A stretch of DNA of 64,000 bases from Bacteroidales bacterium (GTDB lineage Bacteria > Bacteroidota > Bacteroidia > Bacteroidales > UBA10428), in assembly GCA_016935355.1 (NCBI GenBank), contig JAFGRC010000009.1, forward strand, positions 16,057-80,056, in the 5' to 3' direction. A program made the translations under genes and the position numbers. Positions 21,637 through 43,410 of this stretch are shown here, in pieces (within the stretch, counting starts at the first letter, position 1; every line of letters starts with the position of its first letter). A model generated the notes under the pieces. The model was not told the origin of the DNA. It did not search any database and saw only the letters and a program-made list of their open reading frames with translations.

Positions 21637-22263
21637 TTATAACATATTCGCTTCCCATATGATCCATGCATATACTGTAAACCGGATAAAACGCGACAAG
21701 GACCACCAGGCATAATTTTTACCCGGATATTTTACCGCTCCAACCAACATGGCTACTGCCGAAAAAGGTACAGGTGTAATTGCAGCAACCAGGATCAGAT
21801 ACAATCCGTAGACCTGCAGAAGCATCTCGGTTCTGCTTAGAAATCGTTTCCGCAGATACTGATACAATCTGGTAGTGTTCAGATAACGTCCGAACAGGTA
21901 GCCCAATATACCTGCCATATAGGATAGAATGGCAAACAATGCCACGTATCCGATATAACCTGACAACTGGCCGGTTCGCAATGCCCAGAGCATAAATAAT
22001 TCAGGGGGGATGATGCCAAAAACGATTTCCGAAACAACAAAAACCATTATGATCAATACGGTCTCTGAAAGAAAGGGTTCAAAACGCAACAGCAACTCTT
22101 TGTCAATATTATGCTTGGCAAAGACAAACAATGCTATGATAAAGGCAAGCCAGATGAATCCTTTCAGCAAATTGCGAAAAAAAAACGTGTATTTACTTCT
22201 TTGGTCTGTCATGTTGGTTATGCCGCTTGAAATGACTGGTCGCGGAGAAGGATGGGTATTCAT
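21637..22263 (-). CDS. DedA/YqaA-like (VTT domain) integral membrane protein
   Basis: Several hydrophobic helices, and the GYLFGRYL motif resembles the DedA/YqaA family. An alternative ATG lies at 22212. Confidence 0.45.
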   Translation of the reverse strand: MNTHPSPRPVISSGITNMTDQRSKYTFFFRNLLKGFIWLAFIIALFVFAKHNIDKELLLRFEPFLSETVLIIMVFVVSEIVFGIIPPELFMLWALRTGQLSGYIGYVALFAILSYMAGILGYLFGRYLNTTRLYQYLRKRFLSRTEMLLQVYGLYLILVAAITPVPFSAVAMLVGAVKYPGKNYAWWSLSRFIRFTVYAWIIWEANML

Positions 22264-23890: not shown

Positions 23891-24856
23891 ATGATCGCAA
23901 TAACAGGTGCCGCAGGTTTTATTGCAAGCAACCTGATCGGCAGCTTTAATTTGAGCAAGATACACGGGATTATCGTTGTGGACAGATTTACAAGCGAAAA
24001 GAAAAATAAAAATCTGGCTGACAAACACTATCATGAGCAGATCGACCGTGATCATTTCATTTCATGGTTCGTTAAAAACCACCAGTCCGTTGAGTTTGTC
24101 TTTCATCTTGGAGCAAGGACGGATACAACTGAGTTCAGAAAAAGTGTTTTCGACAGGCTGAATCTGGAATATTCAAAGAGGATATGGGAGATCTGCTCGA
24201 AATGCTCCATTCCTCTTGTATATGCCTCTTCAGCTGCCACATATGGCATGGGAGAATTGGGCTATCACGATGTACATGAGATCATACCCCGATTGAAACC
24301 CCTGAATCCTTATGGTGATTCCAAAAATGAATTTGACAAATGGGTGCTGAAACAAACGGATACGCCTCCATACTGGACAGGACTGAAATTTTTCAATGTA
24401 TACGGTCCGAATGAATATCATAAAGGCAGAATGGCATCGGTCGTTTATCACGCTTATGAGCAAATTAGAAAACGAGGTGTAATGAGGTTGTTCAGATCAC
24501 ACAGGATTGATGTGGCTGACGGTGAACAAAAGCGCGATTTTATATATGTCAGGGATGTCGTGGATGTAATGTTGTTTTTTTATCATAACAGACCTGATTC
24601 AGGCATTTACAATGTTGGAACCGGCCGGGCCCGGTCTTTTCTGGAACTGACAAAAGTCACTTTCAGTGCATTGAACATGGTACCCAATATTGAGTTCATC
24701 GATACCCCGGCCGATATCAGGGATACTTATCAGTATTTTACGGAAGCCGACATGAAGAAGCTATACCGCTCGGGGTATACCGGTGAATTTACGCCTCTTG
24801 ACAAAGGAGTGAAGGATTACCTGCAAAATTACCTGATCCCACATAAGTACCGTTAA
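23891..24856 (+). CDS. hldD: ADP-L-glycero-D-manno-heptose 6-epimerase
   Basis: ITGAAGFIASN Rossmann motif, YASSAATYG, and FNVYGPNEYHKGRMASVVYH, which closely matches the HldD/RfaD signature. Confidence 0.8.
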   Translation: MIAITGAAGFIASNLIGSFNLSKIHGIIVVDRFTSEKKNKNLADKHYHEQIDRDHFISWFVKNHQSVEFVFHLGARTDTTEFRKSVFDRLNLEYSKRIWEICSKCSIPLVYASSAATYGMGELGYHDVHEIIPRLKPLNPYGDSKNEFDKWVLKQTDTPPYWTGLKFFNVYGPNEYHKGRMASVVYHAYEQIRKRGVMRLFRSHRIDVADGEQKRDFIYVRDVVDVMLFFYHNRPDSGIYNVGTGRARSFLELTKVTFSALNMVPNIEFIDTPADIRDTYQYFTEADMKKLYRSGYTGEFTPLDKGVKDYLQNYLIPHKYR

Positions 24857-25048
24857 TGAAAAAAAAAGGATGAAGGGATTCAGGTGATGGGTCTGCTGAC
24901 CCAAATATGTTATCAGTACAAAGCAATGAAGGTAATGATCGATAAGATAACGAATACTTTTGTATCAACATAAACAGCTCACCATTGTTGTATATTGTAA
25001 GTGATTCTGTACTTGTTAAATGAACAATTAACATGTATAAAAGTTTAG

Positions 25049-25098: not shown

Positions 25099-27915
25099 AT
25101 GGACAAGTTTTCTTTCATAGATCAGGGCAATATTGATTCCATAGAAAACCTCTACAGTCAATATGAAAACAATCCCGGTCTGGTGGATCAAAGCTGGCGG
25201 CACTTTTTTCAGGGGTTTGAATTCGCCAGGCAACTGTATCCAGATCCGCCTGCTGAAAATACAGATCATCTGGACAAAGAATTCAGGGTACTGAACTACA
25301 TCGATGCATTCCGGAAACGGGGTCATCTGTTTACAACTACGAATCCCGTGAGGACGAGGAGAAAATACCTGCCTGCCCTCGATCCCGAAAATTATGGACT
25401 GAATGAACCGGATTTGAATAAGGTTTTCCATGCCGGGACTGAAATTGGGCTGGGCAATTCATATTTAAAGGATATTATATCCCATCTGCAGGAAACTTAT
25501 TGTCAATCAATTGGATCCGAATTTATGTTTATCCGCAATCCTGAAAAAATCGACTGGCTTATAAAACGAATTGAAAGCTCCAGGAACAGGACAGTTTTCA
25601 GCGAACATGACAGGAAGCAGATTTTTTCACATTTGTTAAAAGCTGTGGGATTTGAAAATTTTATTCATAAGAAATTTACCGGTCAAAAACGCTTTTCGCT
25701 TGAAGGAACTGAGACGCTTATACCTGCTCTGTACTATCTGATCGAGAAAGGTTCAGATCTGGGCGTGGAAGAATGCTTTATCGGAATGGCCCATCGCGGA
25801 AGATTGAATGTACTGGCCAATGTTCTGGAAAAACCGTATGAGAAGATCTTTCAGGAGTTTGTGGCTGAGGAATATGAAGATTCCATAGCCCTGGGAGACG
25901 TCAAATACCATCTCGGATATTGTAATCAGATCCGGTTGAACAATGGGAACAGCATTGCCCTGCACCTGGTTCCGAATGCTGCACATCTTGAATCGGTTTC
26001 ACCAATAACTCAAGGCATTACAAGAGCCAAGATCGATCATAAGTTCGGAGGAGATGTTGCACGGGCACTTCCGGTACTCATACACGGTGATGCAGCTATA
26101 GCGGGACAGGGAATCGTATATGAGGTTGTTCAGATGTCAGAGCTGAGCGGATATAAAACCGGCGGAACCATCCATATAATCATTAACAATCAGGTAGGTT
26201 TTACCACGAACTACCTGGATGCCAGGTCCAGCACATATTGCACCGATATTGGAAAAGTGATCAAAGCGCCTATTTTTCATGTGAACGGGGATGATGTTGA
26301 AGCGCTGGTGCATACGGTCAGGCTGGCAATGGAATACCGGCAGGTATTCCATACTGACGTTTTTATTGATATTCTTTCATACCGTAAATACGGGCATAAC
26401 GAAGGTGACGAGCCCAGGTACACACAACCCACGCTATACCGGGCTATTGAAAATCATCCCAATCCCAGGGATATTTATGCGCAGATGCTTATCGGACAAA
26501 ATATTTACACATCAGGAGAGATTGCAGAAAAAGAGGAGGAATTCTACGATTTTCTGGAAGAAAAACTTCAGGTTTCCAAAAGCATGGGAAAAGTTGATAT
26601 TCAGCAGTTCCTGTATGGTGACTGGAAAAAATATAAACATGCAGACCTTGCTGATTTTAGCAGACAGGTTCCCGGTAAATTGTCCAAAAAGTTTCTGCAA
26701 CAAATAGCGAGGCGAGTAAATTATTTACCCCGGGATAAAAAATTTATTGACAAAACCAATCGGCTGATAAAAAACAGGATCAAGATGTTGCTTGATCAAA
26801 AAGTGGATTGGGCGCTTGCTGAGTTAATGGCTTACGGAACACTTGTTTATGAAGGTTACCCCGTCAGGCTAAGCGGACAGGATTCTATCCGGGGTACTTT
26901 CTCGCACCGGCATGCTTCGCATGTGATTGAGGATACTGATGATGCATATACTCCTTTGAAATATGTGGATAAAAATCAGGCATCCTTTAACATATACAAT
27001 TCACCGTTAAATGAGTACGGAACACTTGGCTTTGAATACGGATACGCATTGGCGGCACCACAAGGGCTGACCATCTGGGAAGCACAGTATGGCGATTTTG
27101 CCAATGTTGCCCAGGTGATCATAGATCAGTACATCAGTTCCGCTGAAGAAAAATGGGGATTGATGAACGGTATTGTTCTGTTCCTGCCGCACGGATATGA
27201 AGGTCAGGGACCTGAGCATTCAAGTGCTAGGATAGAAAGGTTTTTGCTGCTGGCTGCACGCAACAACATGCAGATCGTGAATCCCACCACACCCGCTAAC
27301 ATGTTTCACATACTCCGGCAGAGTGTCAGAAGGGATTTCCGTGTACCACTGATCATTTTTACGCCCAAAAGTCTCCTGCGTCATCCCGGATGCATTTCAC
27401 AACTGGATGAACTTGCCGAAGGCCGCTTCCAGGAAGTTATCGAAGATCATAATGTGGATCATGAGGAAGTCAGGCGGCTTGTATTCTGCACAGGTAAGAT
27501 ATATTATGATCTGGCTTCAAGAAAGGAGGAACTTCTGGCAAAAGATGTTGCAATCGTCCGCATTGAACAGTTGCATCCGTTTCCGCTCCACCGAGTCCGA
27601 ACCGTCATTAGTCAATTTCCCAATCTTGTGCTGACATTGTGGGTGCAGGAAGAACCTGTAAACATGGGAGCCTGGAGACACATCCGGCATGAATTCAGAG
27701 ATCATGAGATCATTCCCGTTTGCAGACAGGCAAGCGGAAGTACTGCAACCGGACTTACCAAAATACACAAGCGCAGTCAGGAAGAAATCATCAACAAGGT
27801 CTTTCGCAAATGTGTTTGTGAACTTAAGAATCGTTACTGCGGATTGCAATGTCCGGATGGCAGTATACGTGAGCAGATCCTGAAAGAGTACGGCTATTTT
27901 TCAGAAATATCATGA
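25099..27915 (+). CDS. sucA: 2-oxoglutarate dehydrogenase E1 component
   Basis: 938 aa. Motifs GMAHRGRLNVLAN, HGDAAIAGQG, YRKYGHNEGDEP and GQDSIRGTFSHRHA. Confidence 0.92.
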   Translation: MDKFSFIDQGNIDSIENLYSQYENNPGLVDQSWRHFFQGFEFARQLYPDPPAENTDHLDKEFRVLNYIDAFRKRGHLFTTTNPVRTRRKYLPALDPENYGLNEPDLNKVFHAGTEIGLGNSYLKDIISHLQETYCQSIGSEFMFIRNPEKIDWLIKRIESSRNRTVFSEHDRKQIFSHLLKAVGFENFIHKKFTGQKRFSLEGTETLIPALYYLIEKGSDLGVEECFIGMAHRGRLNVLANVLEKPYEKIFQEFVAEEYEDSIALGDVKYHLGYCNQIRLNNGNSIALHLVPNAAHLESVSPITQGITRAKIDHKFGGDVARALPVLIHGDAAIAGQGIVYEVVQMSELSGYKTGGTIHIIINNQVGFTTNYLDARSSTYCTDIGKVIKAPIFHVNGDDVEALVHTVRLAMEYRQVFHTDVFIDILSYRKYGHNEGDEPRYTQPTLYRAIENHPNPRDIYAQMLIGQNIYTSGEIAEKEEEFYDFLEEKLQVSKSMGKVDIQQFLYGDWKKYKHADLADFSRQVPGKLSKKFLQQIARRVNYLPRDKKFIDKTNRLIKNRIKMLLDQKVDWALAELMAYGTLVYEGYPVRLSGQDSIRGTFSHRHASHVIEDTDDAYTPLKYVDKNQASFNIYNSPLNEYGTLGFEYGYALAAPQGLTIWEAQYGDFANVAQVIIDQYISSAEEKWGLMNGIVLFLPHGYEGQGPEHSSARIERFLLLAARNNMQIVNPTTPANMFHILRQSVRRDFRVPLIIFTPKSLLRHPGCISQLDELAEGRFQEVIEDHNVDHEEVRRLVFCTGKIYYDLASRKEELLAKDVAIVRIEQLHPFPLHRVRTVISQFPNLVLTLWVQEEPVNMGAWRHIRHEFRDHEIIPVCRQASGSTATGLTKIHKRSQEEIINKVFRKCVCELKNRYCGLQCPDGSIREQILKEYGYFSEIS

Positions 27916-39667: not shown

Positions 39668-40900
39668 TTATGATGTCATATTCCTGATTATTTCACTGGC
39701 AAATTCTGAACATTTGAGCTTTGTGGCTCCCGGCATAAACCTTTCAAAGTCATAGGTCACTTTTCCGGCTTTAATGGATTTCTGCAATCCTTTAATGATC
39801 AGTTCGCCTGCTTTATCCCATCCGATGTATTCAAGCATCATAACGCCTGACAGTATCAACGAACCGGGATTCACCATGTCTTTACCGGCATATCTCGGTG
39901 CCGTTCCGTGAGTGGCTTCAAAGACCGCATGTCCGGTTTCATAATTGATGTTCGCCCCGGGAGCGATACCAATTCCCCCCACAATAGCGGCAAGGGCATC
40001 TGATATATAATCCCCGTTCAGGTTCAATGTGGCAATAACAGAATATTCAGAAGGTCTCGTGAGGATTTGCTGCAAAAAAGCATCTGCAATAACATCCTTT
40101 ATGATGATCTCTTCCCCGGATTGTGGATTTTTCATACAACACCATGGACCTCCGTTAATTTCAGCTGCCCCGAATTCCTTTTTTGCCATCTCATAACCCC
40201 AGTCGCGAAAAGCACCCTCCGTAAACTTCATGATGTTGCCTTTATGTACCATTGTCACAGAAGGCAGCCGGTGCCGGATGCAGTATTGTATGGCAGACCT
40301 TATCAGTCTTTCAGTACCTTCCCTTGAAACGGGCTTGATGCCAATGGAAGAAGTGTCCGGAAAACGGATCTTTGTAACACCCATTTCATGAATAAGAAAG
40401 TCAAGGATTTTGTTTACCTGTTCTGATCCTGACATCCATTCAATACCTGCATAAATGTCCTCAGAGTTTTCCCTGAAGATAACCATGTCCGTATGGGCCG
40501 GATTTTTTACGGGTGAAGGCACACCCTCGTAATATCTTATGGGACGCAAACAGACATATAAATCAAGGACTTGCCTGAGAGCAACGTTTAAGGACCGTAT
40601 GCCCCCGCCTACAGGTGTGGTAAGTGGCCCCTTGATAGCCACCAGATATTTCCGGATGGCAGCCAGGGTTTCTTCGGGCAACCATTCTCCTGTCAGCCGG
40701 AAGGCTTTCTCACCCGCCAGCACTTCCTTCCAGCAGATCCTTTTCTTTCCGGAGTATGCTTTTGCGACAGCTGCATCAAATACACGGACGGCAGCCGCCC
40801 AGATATCCGGACCCGTGCCGTCACCTTCGATAAAGGGAATGACGGGATTATCGGGTATGATCAGTTTACCGTTCCGAATGGTTATTTTTATTCCTTCCAT
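39668..40900 (-). CDS. icd: NADP-dependent isocitrate dehydrogenase (homodimeric type)
   Basis: Motifs [42 protein letters not shown] and [11 protein letters not shown]. Confidence 0.9.
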
Positions 40901-40923
40901 TTGTGCTAATGATTAAAATGATG

Positions 40924-42672
40924 CTATTCCAGTTCCAGGTTTAGCGTTTCTTTTAGTTTTGATAACAGGGGATTTTTAAGGTTCAGGTAGGCAAACTTCT
41001 CATCGCTTGTATACAATCTGACCTGATCTCCGTTTGTTGTTTCAGAAACAGCCGTTTCAACAGAAATTTCAGGGTTTTGCATTTCACGCCGTAAAAATTT
41101 CTCCAGTTCTGCTTTTGTGCTTGTATTGAAATCTTCAAGTTGTGCCTGATTGCTCAAAGTGATCATAATTCTGTTTCCGGAAGCTATTTCGGGTTTGGTG
41201 TTCTTAAGTGCGACAGCCATTCTGGGCCTGTTCCTGTGAATCTGATCCGCGTATGCTGCCCAGCACATATTGAGAAATTCCCGGGATATTGCCTTATCGG
41301 ATCCTGTCAGGGCTGTATCAGCCTGTAATTCACTGCTCTCCTGATCCTGACCGGTATCATGATCCGGAATGTCCATTATTTTTGATGTCAGCGCATCTTT
41401 TATGGATATGCTTTCCCCGGTTGAAGCATATTTTTGATACGGCTCATTCACGGTTACCTTACGCCCGGCAGAATGAGATCCTGTTGCAGGATGAGATCCG
41501 GTTTCTGTCTTGTTTTTTGCAGATGAAACGATTTCAGGAACAGGTATGTGATCGTTTTTATGATTCAGGTTTTTTTTTTCAGCATTCAGAGCGCAGAGTC
41601 TGATGAGTGCCAGTTCAACATGAAACCGTTGATTTTTGCTTGATTTGTAACCCACTTCACATTGGTTGCAGATTTCAAGTGCCTGAAACAAAAATTCAGG
41701 AGTACATAACGAAGCCTGTTTGATATACTGATCTTTCATGGTCTCACCTGCTTCCAGCAATTGAATGGTCTCAACATCACGGCTTACCAGAAGATCACGA
41801 AGATGACCCGACATACCACCAATAAAATGGAATCCGTCAAAACCCTTTGAAAGGATCTCATCATAGATCAGCAATGCGTTTGCGGTTGATTTACTGATAA
41901 AAGCTTCCGTCAGTCTGAAGTAATATTCCCGGTCAAGCACGTTGAGGTTCTCCGCAACTTCCTTGTATGTGATGTTATTTCCTGTAAAACTGGCTGTCTG
42001 ATCAAAGATCGACAAGGCATCACGCAAAGATCCTTCAGCTTTGACGGCAATCACGTGCAGTGCGTCCTTTTCATATTTGATGTTTTCAGAATCCGCAATC
42101 TTCATCAGATAGGTTATTATATCATCCGGATGGATCCTGTTAAAGTCAAAAACCTGGCATCGCGAAAGAATGGTAGGAAGTATTTTGTGTTTTTCAGTCG
42201 TTGCCAGAATGAATATCGCATGCGAGGGAGGTTCTTCCAATGTTTTCAGGAAGGCATTGAAAGCCGATTGTGATAACATATGCACCTCATCAATGATGTA
42301 TATGCTGTATTTACCAACCTGAGGATGAATGCGTACTTTTTCAATCAGACTGCGGATGTCATCAACCGAATTGTTGGAAGCGGCGTCCAGTTCATGAATG
42401 TTAAAAGATCTTGATTCGTTGAAGGCCAGACAGGATTCGCATTTTCCGCAAGCTTCAGCGGATTCGTCCAGGTTATAACAATTCAAAGTCCGTGCAAGAA
42501 TGCGTGCGCAGGTTGTTTTTCCCACACCGCGTGGTCCGCAAAACAAATATGCATGTGCAATTTGTCCCGTTCTAACCGCATTTCTGAGCGTACTGGTAAC
42601 AGAAGGTTGTCCGATAACGGCATCAAAAGACACAGGTCTGTATTTCCGCGCTGATACAATATAATTACCCAT
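40924..42672 (-). CDS. dnaX: DNA polymerase III subunit gamma/tau
   Basis: Walker A GPRGVGKTT, zinc module CGKCESC, DEVHMLS and SRCQ, followed by a tau-type C-terminal extension. Confidence 0.9.
   Translation of the reverse strand: MGNYIVSARKYRPVSFDAVIGQPSVTSTLRNAVRTGQIAHAYLFCGPRGVGKTTCARILARTLNCYNLDESAEACGKCESCLAFNESRSFNIHELDAASNNSVDDIRSLIEKVRIHPQVGKYSIYIIDEVHMLSQSAFNAFLKTLEEPPSHAIFILATTEKHKILPTILSRCQVFDFNRIHPDDIITYLMKIADSENIKYEKDALHVIAVKAEGSLRDALSIFDQTASFTGNNITYKEVAENLNVLDREYYFRLTEAFISKSTANALLIYDEILSKGFDGFHFIGGMSGHLRDLLVSRDVETIQLLEAGETMKDQYIKQASLCTPEFLFQALEICNQCEVGYKSSKNQRFHVELALIRLCALNAEKKNLNHKNDHIPVPEIVSSAKNKTETGSHPATGSHSAGRKVTVNEPYQKYASTGESISIKDALTSKIMDIPDHDTGQDQESSELQADTALTGSDKAISREFLNMCWAAYADQIHRNRPRMAVALKNTKPEIASGNRIMITLSNQAQLEDFNTSTKAELEKFLRREMQNPEISVETAVSETTNGDQVRLYTSDEKFAYLNLKNPLLSKLKETLNLELE
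41570..41579 (-). other. A10 homopolymer (coding strand) inside dnaX; candidate recoding/slippage site
   Basis: The coding strand reads GCT GAA AAA AAA AAC CTG (codons 364-369). The -1 frame stops after KKKPES and the +1 frame after KKKT. That the run is functional is inference. Confidence 0.4.
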
Positions 42673-43014
42673 TCATATGAACTTTACATGCAAAGATATT
42701 TATTTCTCAAATCTTACAGGGATCAGTGCCTGTTAACATTTAATTTTTTTCAAACATGTATTGTCTGTTCACATTCAAACACAATCGTTATCACAGTGTT
42801 GACAATGCTGCACATTTGCTTTCAGATCCGGTTTTACTGCTGCCATTTGCCTGTTTTCTGCAGGGGATTTTCAGGACTGCAATCCTGATTTCACTTTAAT
42901 CATGACAGAGCATGTATTCGGCACCATCCACAACATGTTCATCAATTAAAGGTCAGGTTGTCAGTGAAATAATCGTATACACAATTGGAAACAAATCTTT
43001 TAAGCGTTTACATC

Positions 43015-43410
43015 ATGTCATACAACTGGAGCAACCGGACCATACTGATCGCCGAAGATGATGAAATGAATTACCGTTATCTGGAGCTTATTTTTGAGAG
43101 GTTCACACACATTAATGTCATCTGGGCCATTAACGGCAGAATGGCAATAGATTACTGTCAGATTTACCAATATATTGACATTGTGATCATGGATATGCAG
43201 TTACCTGTGGTTGACGGACTCGAAGCCGTCAGGCAGATCAAGTCAATTAAGCCTGAGCTTCCCATTATCGCACATACAGCGAGCACATACAATGATGCAA
43301 TTGAACAGTGCCTGGATGCAGGATGCGATGACTATATTTCCAAACCTGTCAGCATTGAGGATTTACTCAACCGCATTGAAAATCTGTTGAATCCCGTCGC
43401 CACCAGTTAG
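43015..43410 (+). CDS. stand-alone response-regulator receiver domain protein (CheY-like)
   Basis: Acidic pocket EDDE, phospho-acceptor context VIMDMQLP, HTAS and SKP. The track start at 42985 is a TTG; the ATG is at 43015. Confidence 0.75.
   Translation: MSYNWSNRTILIAEDDEMNYRYLELIFERFTHINVIWAINGRMAIDYCQIYQYIDIVIMDMQLPVVDGLEAVRQIKSIKPELPIIAHTASTYNDAIEQCLDAGCDDYISKPVSIEDLLNRIENLLNPVATS

Follow-up and report, generated by a model that had tools for sequence, protein, structure and literature searches.

How might a single dnaX gene, read as one uninterrupted open reading frame (ORF), give rise to two clamp-loader subunits, full-length tau and a shorter gamma? The question is raised by a window of 64,000 nucleotides (nt) from a Bacteroidales bacterium (lineage Bacteroidota; Bacteroidia; Bacteroidales; UBA10428; GenBank assembly GCA_016935355.1, contig JAFGRC010000009.1, positions 16,057 to 80,056 of the forward strand), in which the coding strand of dnaX carries a run of ten A residues (A10) at the point where the clamp-loader domains end and the tau-specific part of the protein begins. 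Our analysis suggests that the A10 run is very probably a conserved gamma/tau recoding signal. We further propose, with a probability of roughly two in three, that it is a programmed transcriptional slippage site of the Thermus thermophilus type, through which one dnaX gene would yield two clamp-loader subunits. That slippage takes place at transcription and does so efficiently, and that cells make and use the short product, are steps that we infer from sequence comparison.

According to this proposal, RNA polymerase moving along the T10 template tract would realign the nascent RNA and produce a mixed pool of messages carrying A10 plus A11, A12, A9 and so on. Messages that match the template, together with those altered by multiples of three residues, would be translated into full-length tau of 582 amino acids (aa), consisting of domains I–III, a disordered linker and a C-terminal domain. 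One extra A would place the ribosome in the −1 frame and end translation at a TAA after KKKPES (371 aa), and the loss of one A would end it at a TGA after EKKT (368 aa). Both short products would be gamma-like proteins composed of domains I–III only.

The layout of the gene is consistent with such an outcome. No long ORF other than dnaX (582 aa) is present at 40924..42672 on the minus strand, and its identity is secure: NCBIfam NF011531 matches with 760 bits, TIGR02397 (dnaX_nterm) covers residues 4–360, Pfam places DNA_pol3_delta2, the ATPase lid and DNA_pol3_gamma3, the last ending at residue 362, and the protein is 100% identical to an NCBI entry titled 'MAG: DNA polymerase III subunit gamma/tau [Bacteroidales bacterium]', MAG denoting a metagenome-assembled genome. 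Its N-terminal part is homologous to the E. coli gamma/tau chains of 1JR3 and 3GLH. The E. coli gamma chains in crystal entries 1XXI and 1JR3, which we take to be structures of clamp-loader complexes, are 368–373 residues long. In an AlphaFold2 (AF2) model built with 34 homologues, the last helix of the N-terminal fold occupies residues 348–360, confidence is very low over residues 365–458 (predicted local distance difference test, pLDDT, <50 at 365–424 and 431–458), and a folded C-terminal domain appears at residues 464–577 with a pLDDT of about 80–87. From its position and conservation this last domain is presumed to be the equivalent of the polymerase-binding end of tau; when it was compared with tau domain V by sequence, Pfam matches were below threshold and no credible match was found in the PDB.

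Domain III thus ends at residue 360–362 and the run begins at codon 365, among the first residues of the disordered linker and at about 63% of the gene's length. The run corresponds to gene nt 1094–1103, within codons 364–372 of 582 (GCT GAA AAA AAA AAC CTG AAT CAT AAA), and contains the phased heptamers A_AAA_AAA and A_AAA_AAC. Because the run lies right after domain III, the predicted gamma would be a bare domain I–III protein, and codons 1–362 are predicted to be common to it and to tau. Simulated messages make the products explicit. With one A added, translation ends as ...NAEKKKPES at the TAA at 41558–41560 (371 aa, 41.7 kDa); with one A removed, it ends as ...NAEKKT at the TGA at 41565–41567 (368 aa); with two A residues added, as EKKKT at the same TGA (369 aa); and with two removed, as EKKPES (370 aa). 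The predicted gamma products span 41.3–41.7 kDa. An earlier note, made from this DNA alone, had described the run, its codons and its place just past the final helix of domain III, and rereading of the sequence, the Pfam boundary and the AF2 model bear this description out, as the simulation does for its −1-frame reading of KKKPES. Its +1-frame reading of KKKT followed by a stop was right about the early stop and wrong about the peptide, in that a single deletion gives EKKT and the KKKT ending belongs to the product of two inserted residues.

The weight of the argument rests on relatives. We drew related loci in equal numbers from GTDB species genomes (80, with alignment A1) and metagenomes (80), and located the end of domain III by tblastn in each of the 157 of these 160 that were usable; because the loci are phylogenetically related and were picked by similarity to the query, the proportions that follow describe a sample rather than a census. 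A run of at least nine A residues lies between −4 and +71 nt from the end of domain III in 105 of the 157 loci, with a length of 10 in 78 loci, 9 in 14, 11 in 12 and 13 in 1. Such runs have a density of 3.9 per kb in this target segment versus 0.029 per kb in the remainder of these loci (an enrichment of about 130-fold), and there are none in 162.5 kb of domain I–III coding sequence. To judge from these counts, the run is the rule rather than the exception among the sampled Bacteroidota.

What is conserved is the nucleotide tract. Codon phases 0, 1 and 2 are all used by the run, in 18, 50 and 37 loci, respectively, and the peptides that it encodes (KKKx, [EQ]KK[NK] or xKKK) always include at least two Lys residues. 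Lys codons within the run are without exception AAA, compared with 70% AAA elsewhere in these genes (log10 P of about −39 for all-AAA tracts, with loci treated as independent), and the bases that flank the run are unconserved across loci. Because all three codon phases are used, the Lys codons are uniformly AAA and the flanks are unconserved, these comparisons indicate that selection is on the nucleotides of the run and not on the peptide. At the protein level, nearly all of the best 120 homologues (51–79% identity) have E/Q-K-K-N/K at this position, and that motif is the exception in a linker that is otherwise variable and unalignable. In the four closest relatives, which are 72–79% identical at the aa level and come from independent assemblies, GAAAAAAAAAA is identical while adjacent synonymous sites vary, and the −1-frame TAA is retained in all four.

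Stops in the alternate frames are also held close. Among single-ORF loci, 84 of 84 have a −1-frame stop no more than 17 nt from the run, versus 45% at control sites in these genes, and a +1-frame stop lies within the same distance in 87%, versus 32–38% at control positions; both stops fall within 30 nt in 79 of 84 loci, versus 30% at controls. The alignment of relatives that the earlier note had called for, looking for runs of at least nine A residues with nearby out-of-frame stops kept despite synonymous choices, thus returned such runs in 105/157 loci with AAG absent from them, and its reading of the run as a possible gamma/tau recoding site gains strong support from the same data.

A second line of evidence comes from the way in which tau is encoded. 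The 105 run-bearing loci comprise 84 with a single ORF of the window type, 13 in which the tau C-terminus is in the −1 frame, 2 in which it is in the +1 frame and 6 that were unclassified. Examples of the single-ORF form come from Pedobacter, Mucilaginibacter, Sphingobacterium and Dyadobacter, with A10, and from Parabacteroides, with A9. In the split loci, of which L049, L060 and L144–L146 are examples, the zero frame stops a few codons past the run and the shifted frame holds an ORF of >580 nt, which contains a homologue of the window's C-terminal domain where tblastn placed it. The window locus is not of this two-ORF form, having one ORF with the C-terminal domain in frame 0. To judge by their reading frames, the 15 split loci appear to need slippage at the run for full-length tau. 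Because tau would be unreadable from these genes without a shift, and because split genes are common, scattered and present in finished genomes too, slippage at the run is presumably efficient in this phylum, and, in a single-ORF gene, such a tract should place a substantial fraction of messages out of frame. On a neighbor-joining tree of the N-terminal domains, Fitch parsimony requires at least 10 changes of architecture and no fewer than 15 events in which the run was gained or lost; as reconstructed on this tree, the frame in which tau is encoded has switched repeatedly, with the same run as the pivot.

Several properties of the site favor slippage by RNA polymerase over ribosomal frameshifting of the E. 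coli type: run length is held at 9–11 whatever the phase, where frameshifting would need no more than a phased heptamer; both directions of shift are found among the split genes, which is the criterion used by Antonov et al. for transcriptional realignment; both alternate frames retain nearby stops, as they do in T. thermophilus; and the window lacks a Shine-Dalgarno-like (SD-like) element, significant flanking structure, an Rfam match and a terminator at the tract. A large share of the bacterial genomes analyzed show selection against slippage-prone coding runs from a length of 9 upward (Baranov 2005). The phased heptamer A_AAA_AAG is not present at the window run, and no SD-like GGAG, GAGG or AGGA is found in the 22 nt upstream, AGACTCTGCGCTCTGAATGCTG. 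A scan of positions 40800–42900 against Rfam, including the DnaX element, gave zero matches at E values up to 1. Folds of the sequences flanking the window run are no better than those of shuffles, with z scores of −0.45 to −0.86 (upstream −0.64; downstream −0.45, the downstream 70 nt folding at −5.9 kcal/mol), and there is no signal for downstream structure across the 105 loci (mean z −0.24). Thus, of the two mechanisms that the earlier note had offered, the Thermus type fits and the E. coli-type cassette is rejected for the window. An intrinsic terminator that would use the plus-strand T10 was likewise rejected, a scan for terminators having predicted none there. Across the 105 loci, the 45 nt upstream of the run have a weak excess of structure, measured against mononucleotide shuffles (mean z −0.73, with 14% of the loci scoring below −2). 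An SD-like GGAG directly abuts the run in one cluster of related loci, as it also does in the published T. thermophilus sequence (GAGGGAG-A9). The upstream structure and the abutting GGAG could reflect an effect of the nascent RNA or of the hybrid on slippage, or phylogenetic inertia.

The closest functional analogue is the dnaX gene of T. thermophilus, a single ORF with an A9 run and stops in both alternate frames, for which slippage was shown experimentally (Larsen et al. 2000, via PMC1088944 and PMC5009743). The two genes share tau in one ORF, a sense-strand A run of at least nine after the clamp-loader domains, near stops in both frames, no need for stimulators of the E. coli type, and a short product without the tau C-terminus. 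They differ in that the run is A10 rather than A9, the phylum is another, slippage at the window locus is predicted from comparison of sequences, and the Thermus run lies 'seven-eighths' through the gene rather than immediately past domain III. With E. coli dnaX the window shares the gene, the outcome (tau plus a gamma that ends a few codons past the shift site) and an A-rich slippery sequence of Lys codons, whereas it has none of the A_AAA_AAG heptamer, SD-like element, stem-loop and Rfam DnaX element found there. E. coli relies on a single tRNA-Lys; no tRNA genes were found in the window.

Certain facts weigh against the transcriptional reading. The kinship of the loci and their choice by similarity mean that the counts overstate the number of independent observations. 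The run is missing in about one-third of the sampled relatives, and therefore is not indispensable; it is found in no locus titled Bacteroidaceae or Prevotellaceae and in just one titled Bacteroides, namely L058, an uncultured MAG titled Bacteroides sp. with an A11 run. Within the window, A10 is no rarer than chance. Some of the split metagenome loci could be homopolymer assembly errors, although finished genomes share their architecture. Both the mechanism and the efficiency of slippage are deduced from sequence. Finally, every run of nine or more A residues necessarily holds a phased A_AAA_AAA heptamer, here joined by A_AAA_AAC, and ribosomes slide on poly(A), as documented for iterated AAA codons in E. 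coli (Koutmou 2015, PMC4363877), so that translation may contribute as well.

This last point bears on the possibility that the site is real and that the shift occurs on the ribosome, by −1 programmed frameshifting or sliding of tRNA-Lys on poly(A), with little or no part for RNA polymerase. Such a mechanism would be in keeping with the −1-frame stop being the more tightly kept of the two (within 17 nt in 84/84 loci) and with the frequency of SD-like four-base motifs upstream of the run across loci (32% versus 12%). That enrichment, however, is mostly GGAG abutting the run in loci that cluster together on the tree, and the usual stimulators (SD-like motif, downstream structure, Rfam DnaX element) are missing in the window, with no signal for downstream structure across loci. 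A ribosomal mechanism also leaves unexplained why the run is held at 9–11 nt in any phase when a heptamer would do, why both −1 and +1 split forms exist and why the +1-frame stop is kept close too; moreover, A_AAA_AAA and A_AAA_AAC are far less shift-prone than A_AAA_AAG in E. coli. We therefore consider a purely ribosomal shift unlikely.

A further possibility is that there is no recoding, the run being kept as a Lys-rich linker patch, as a DNA-structural A-tract or as a mutational hotspot with occasional switching at the DNA level, and tau alone being of consequence here. The run always encodes at least two Lys residues, about one-third of relatives lack it without any obvious substitute, and indels in it have occurred at the DNA level during evolution, as the at least 10 architecture switches attest. 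A protein-level motif, though, would take AAG about 30% of the time, and AAG is never seen in the run; nor would it need both frames to be closed by a stop within a few codons. A Lys motif at the protein level is ruled out by codon phase and by the usage of AAA and AAG. Without slippage at this same run, no tau could come from the split loci, and a contingency tract that varies rapidly would hardly show the sharp peak in run length at 10 that both architectures have. The absence of recoding in any form is in our estimation quite improbable.

Least credible of all, and refuted by conservation across loci and identity among close relatives, is a chance homopolymer or a sequencing or assembly artefact in a MAG: of 100 dinucleotide shuffles of the window, 60 do contain one or more A10 or T10 tracts, but the run recurs at the same structural boundary in 105/157 loci, which derive from independent assemblies and isolates; with A10 the ORF stays open throughout; and four close relatives, each assembled independently, have the identical run. 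The significance of the run thus derives from its conservation at the same position in relatives and not from statistics within the window, which contains no second run of ten or more.

There is also a broader reading, to which we give even odds: that the A9–A11 run at the boundary of domain III and linker is an ancestral, phylum-wide and highly efficient programmed slippage device in Bacteroidota, with the single-ORF form as the main one; that tau-templated and gamma-templated forms have switched at least 10 times because both products are made either way; and that the device was lost in Bacteroidaceae and Prevotellaceae, which would make gamma otherwise or not at all. Were this so, the natural pairs of architectures would be a ready-made system for asking what gamma does.

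Neither the class of mechanism nor its presence in Bacteroidota is a new principle, as both were proposed in 2013. Antonov et al. (2013, PMC3711429) listed 17 two-ORF dnaX genes from 12 genera, for which transcriptional realignment was predicted, and aligned nine poly-A motifs from two-ORF dnaX genes in Suppl. Fig. S3, including A10 in Flavobacterium johnsoniae, F. psychrophilum, Cytophaga hutchinsonii, Chlorobi and Coraliomargarita and A9 in Capnocytophaga ochracea. The statement in the earlier note that no described case was known in Bacteroidota must accordingly be withdrawn, since several are there in two-ORF form. The window shares with those genes the phylum, which is represented among them, the A10 run, its place in dnaX and the predicted mechanism, and 15 of the relatives sampled here have the two-ORF form; it differs in that their gamma is read in the zero frame and tau by a shift, whereas in the window tau is in the zero frame and gamma would require the shift. 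Frameshift-finders such as GeneTack are blind to the single-ORF form, which is the majority here (84 of 99 classified loci). For experimental work on slippage in Bacteroidota dnaX, the searchable literature gave only Antonov 2013, and in the same literature we found no description of the single-ORF form in this phylum, the prevalence of the run, the repeated flipping of architecture or the lack of the run under the titles Bacteroidaceae, Prevotellaceae and, with one exception, Bacteroides.

The locus would thus be a Bacteroidales example of the Thermus-type route to gamma, and each independent route to gamma argues for selection of the short form. For annotation, split Bacteroidota dnaX genes should not be treated as pseudogenes, and a DnaX product of 41–42 kDa may be expected from single-ORF genes that carry the run.

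The run-less relatives suggest that gamma may be reached in other ways. One of them, L120 (metagenome contig Ga0214919_10000839; L120:2590-2720), has a seemingly complete E. coli-like cassette 47 nt past domain III, consisting of GGAGGG, a 10-nt spacer, an in-phase A_AAA_AAG, a −1-frame stop after KKV and, about 5 nt downstream, a GUCCCC...GGGGAC stem-loop of −17.4 kcal/mol; it gave no Rfam match. From this arrangement L120 appears to use ribosomal frameshifting, with stimulators that the A10 loci do not have, and these relatives may between them use both routes to gamma. In Caulobacter crescentus, a gamma-like form without the tau C-terminus likewise comes from a single ORF, in this case by post-translational partial proteolysis by ClpXP and with no slippery sequence; by analogy, proteolysis of this kind may be relevant to the run-less Bacteroidaceae and Prevotellaceae.

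A set of run-less loci (L016, L018, L020, L037, L041, L044, L050, L057, L064, L072, L079 and L083–L094), titled Bacteroides, Bacteroidaceae, Prevotellaceae and similar or being untitled metagenome loci that cluster with these, have in the linker neither a homopolymer of eight or more nor a phased slippery heptamer. Many of them share GGGC-N3-4-GCCC (encoding G-R-S-P or G-L-C-P), followed by K-K..K-P-I-F, about 30–60 nt past the end of domain III. Two loci that were scored as run-less near domain III, L021 (+271 nt past domain III) and L130 (+248 nt), carry A10 or A11 farther along, with stops directly after (caataa..., tag...); a slippage site therefore can, it seems, occupy different positions in the linker.

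Table 1. Positions of dnaX and of its parts in the 64,000-nt window.
Feature	Position	Strand	Basis
dnaX, single ORF for full-length tau (582 aa, 65.2 kDa)	40924..42672	minus	ORF list, NCBIfam, Pfam
Codons 1–362, clamp-loader domains I–III (AAA+ module, lid, collar)	41587..42672	minus	Pfam/NCBIfam, E. coli homology, AF2
A10 run, putatively slippery (T10 on plus strand), codons 365–368 (gAA AAA AAA AAc)	41570..41579	minus	sequence, relatives
TGA, +1-frame stop, 2 nt past run	41565..41567	minus	simulated mRNAs
TAA, −1-frame stop, 9 nt past run	41558..41560	minus	simulated mRNAs
Codons 365–458, linker, tau only, predicted disordered, poorly conserved	41299..41580	minus	AF2 pLDDT, 120-protein alignment
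Codons 464–577, folded conserved C-terminal domain, tau only	40942..41283	minus	AF2, conserved columns in alignment A1

The surroundings of dnaX (window 39668–43410) keep their gene order in the closest relatives (L161–L165), namely a divergent response-regulator gene, dnaX, a gene of the isocitrate/isopropylmalate dehydrogenase family and secA. Two shorter A runs lie elsewhere in the window. An A9 on the plus strand at 22177–22185 is a T9 (FFF, at about codons 27–29) in a 208-aa ORF on the minus strand (21637..22263), a slippage-prone length in a putative coding region. The other A9, at 24859–24867, starts 2 bases past the TAA of the ORF at 23891..24856 and is intergenic, preceding a 938-aa ORF that starts at 25099.

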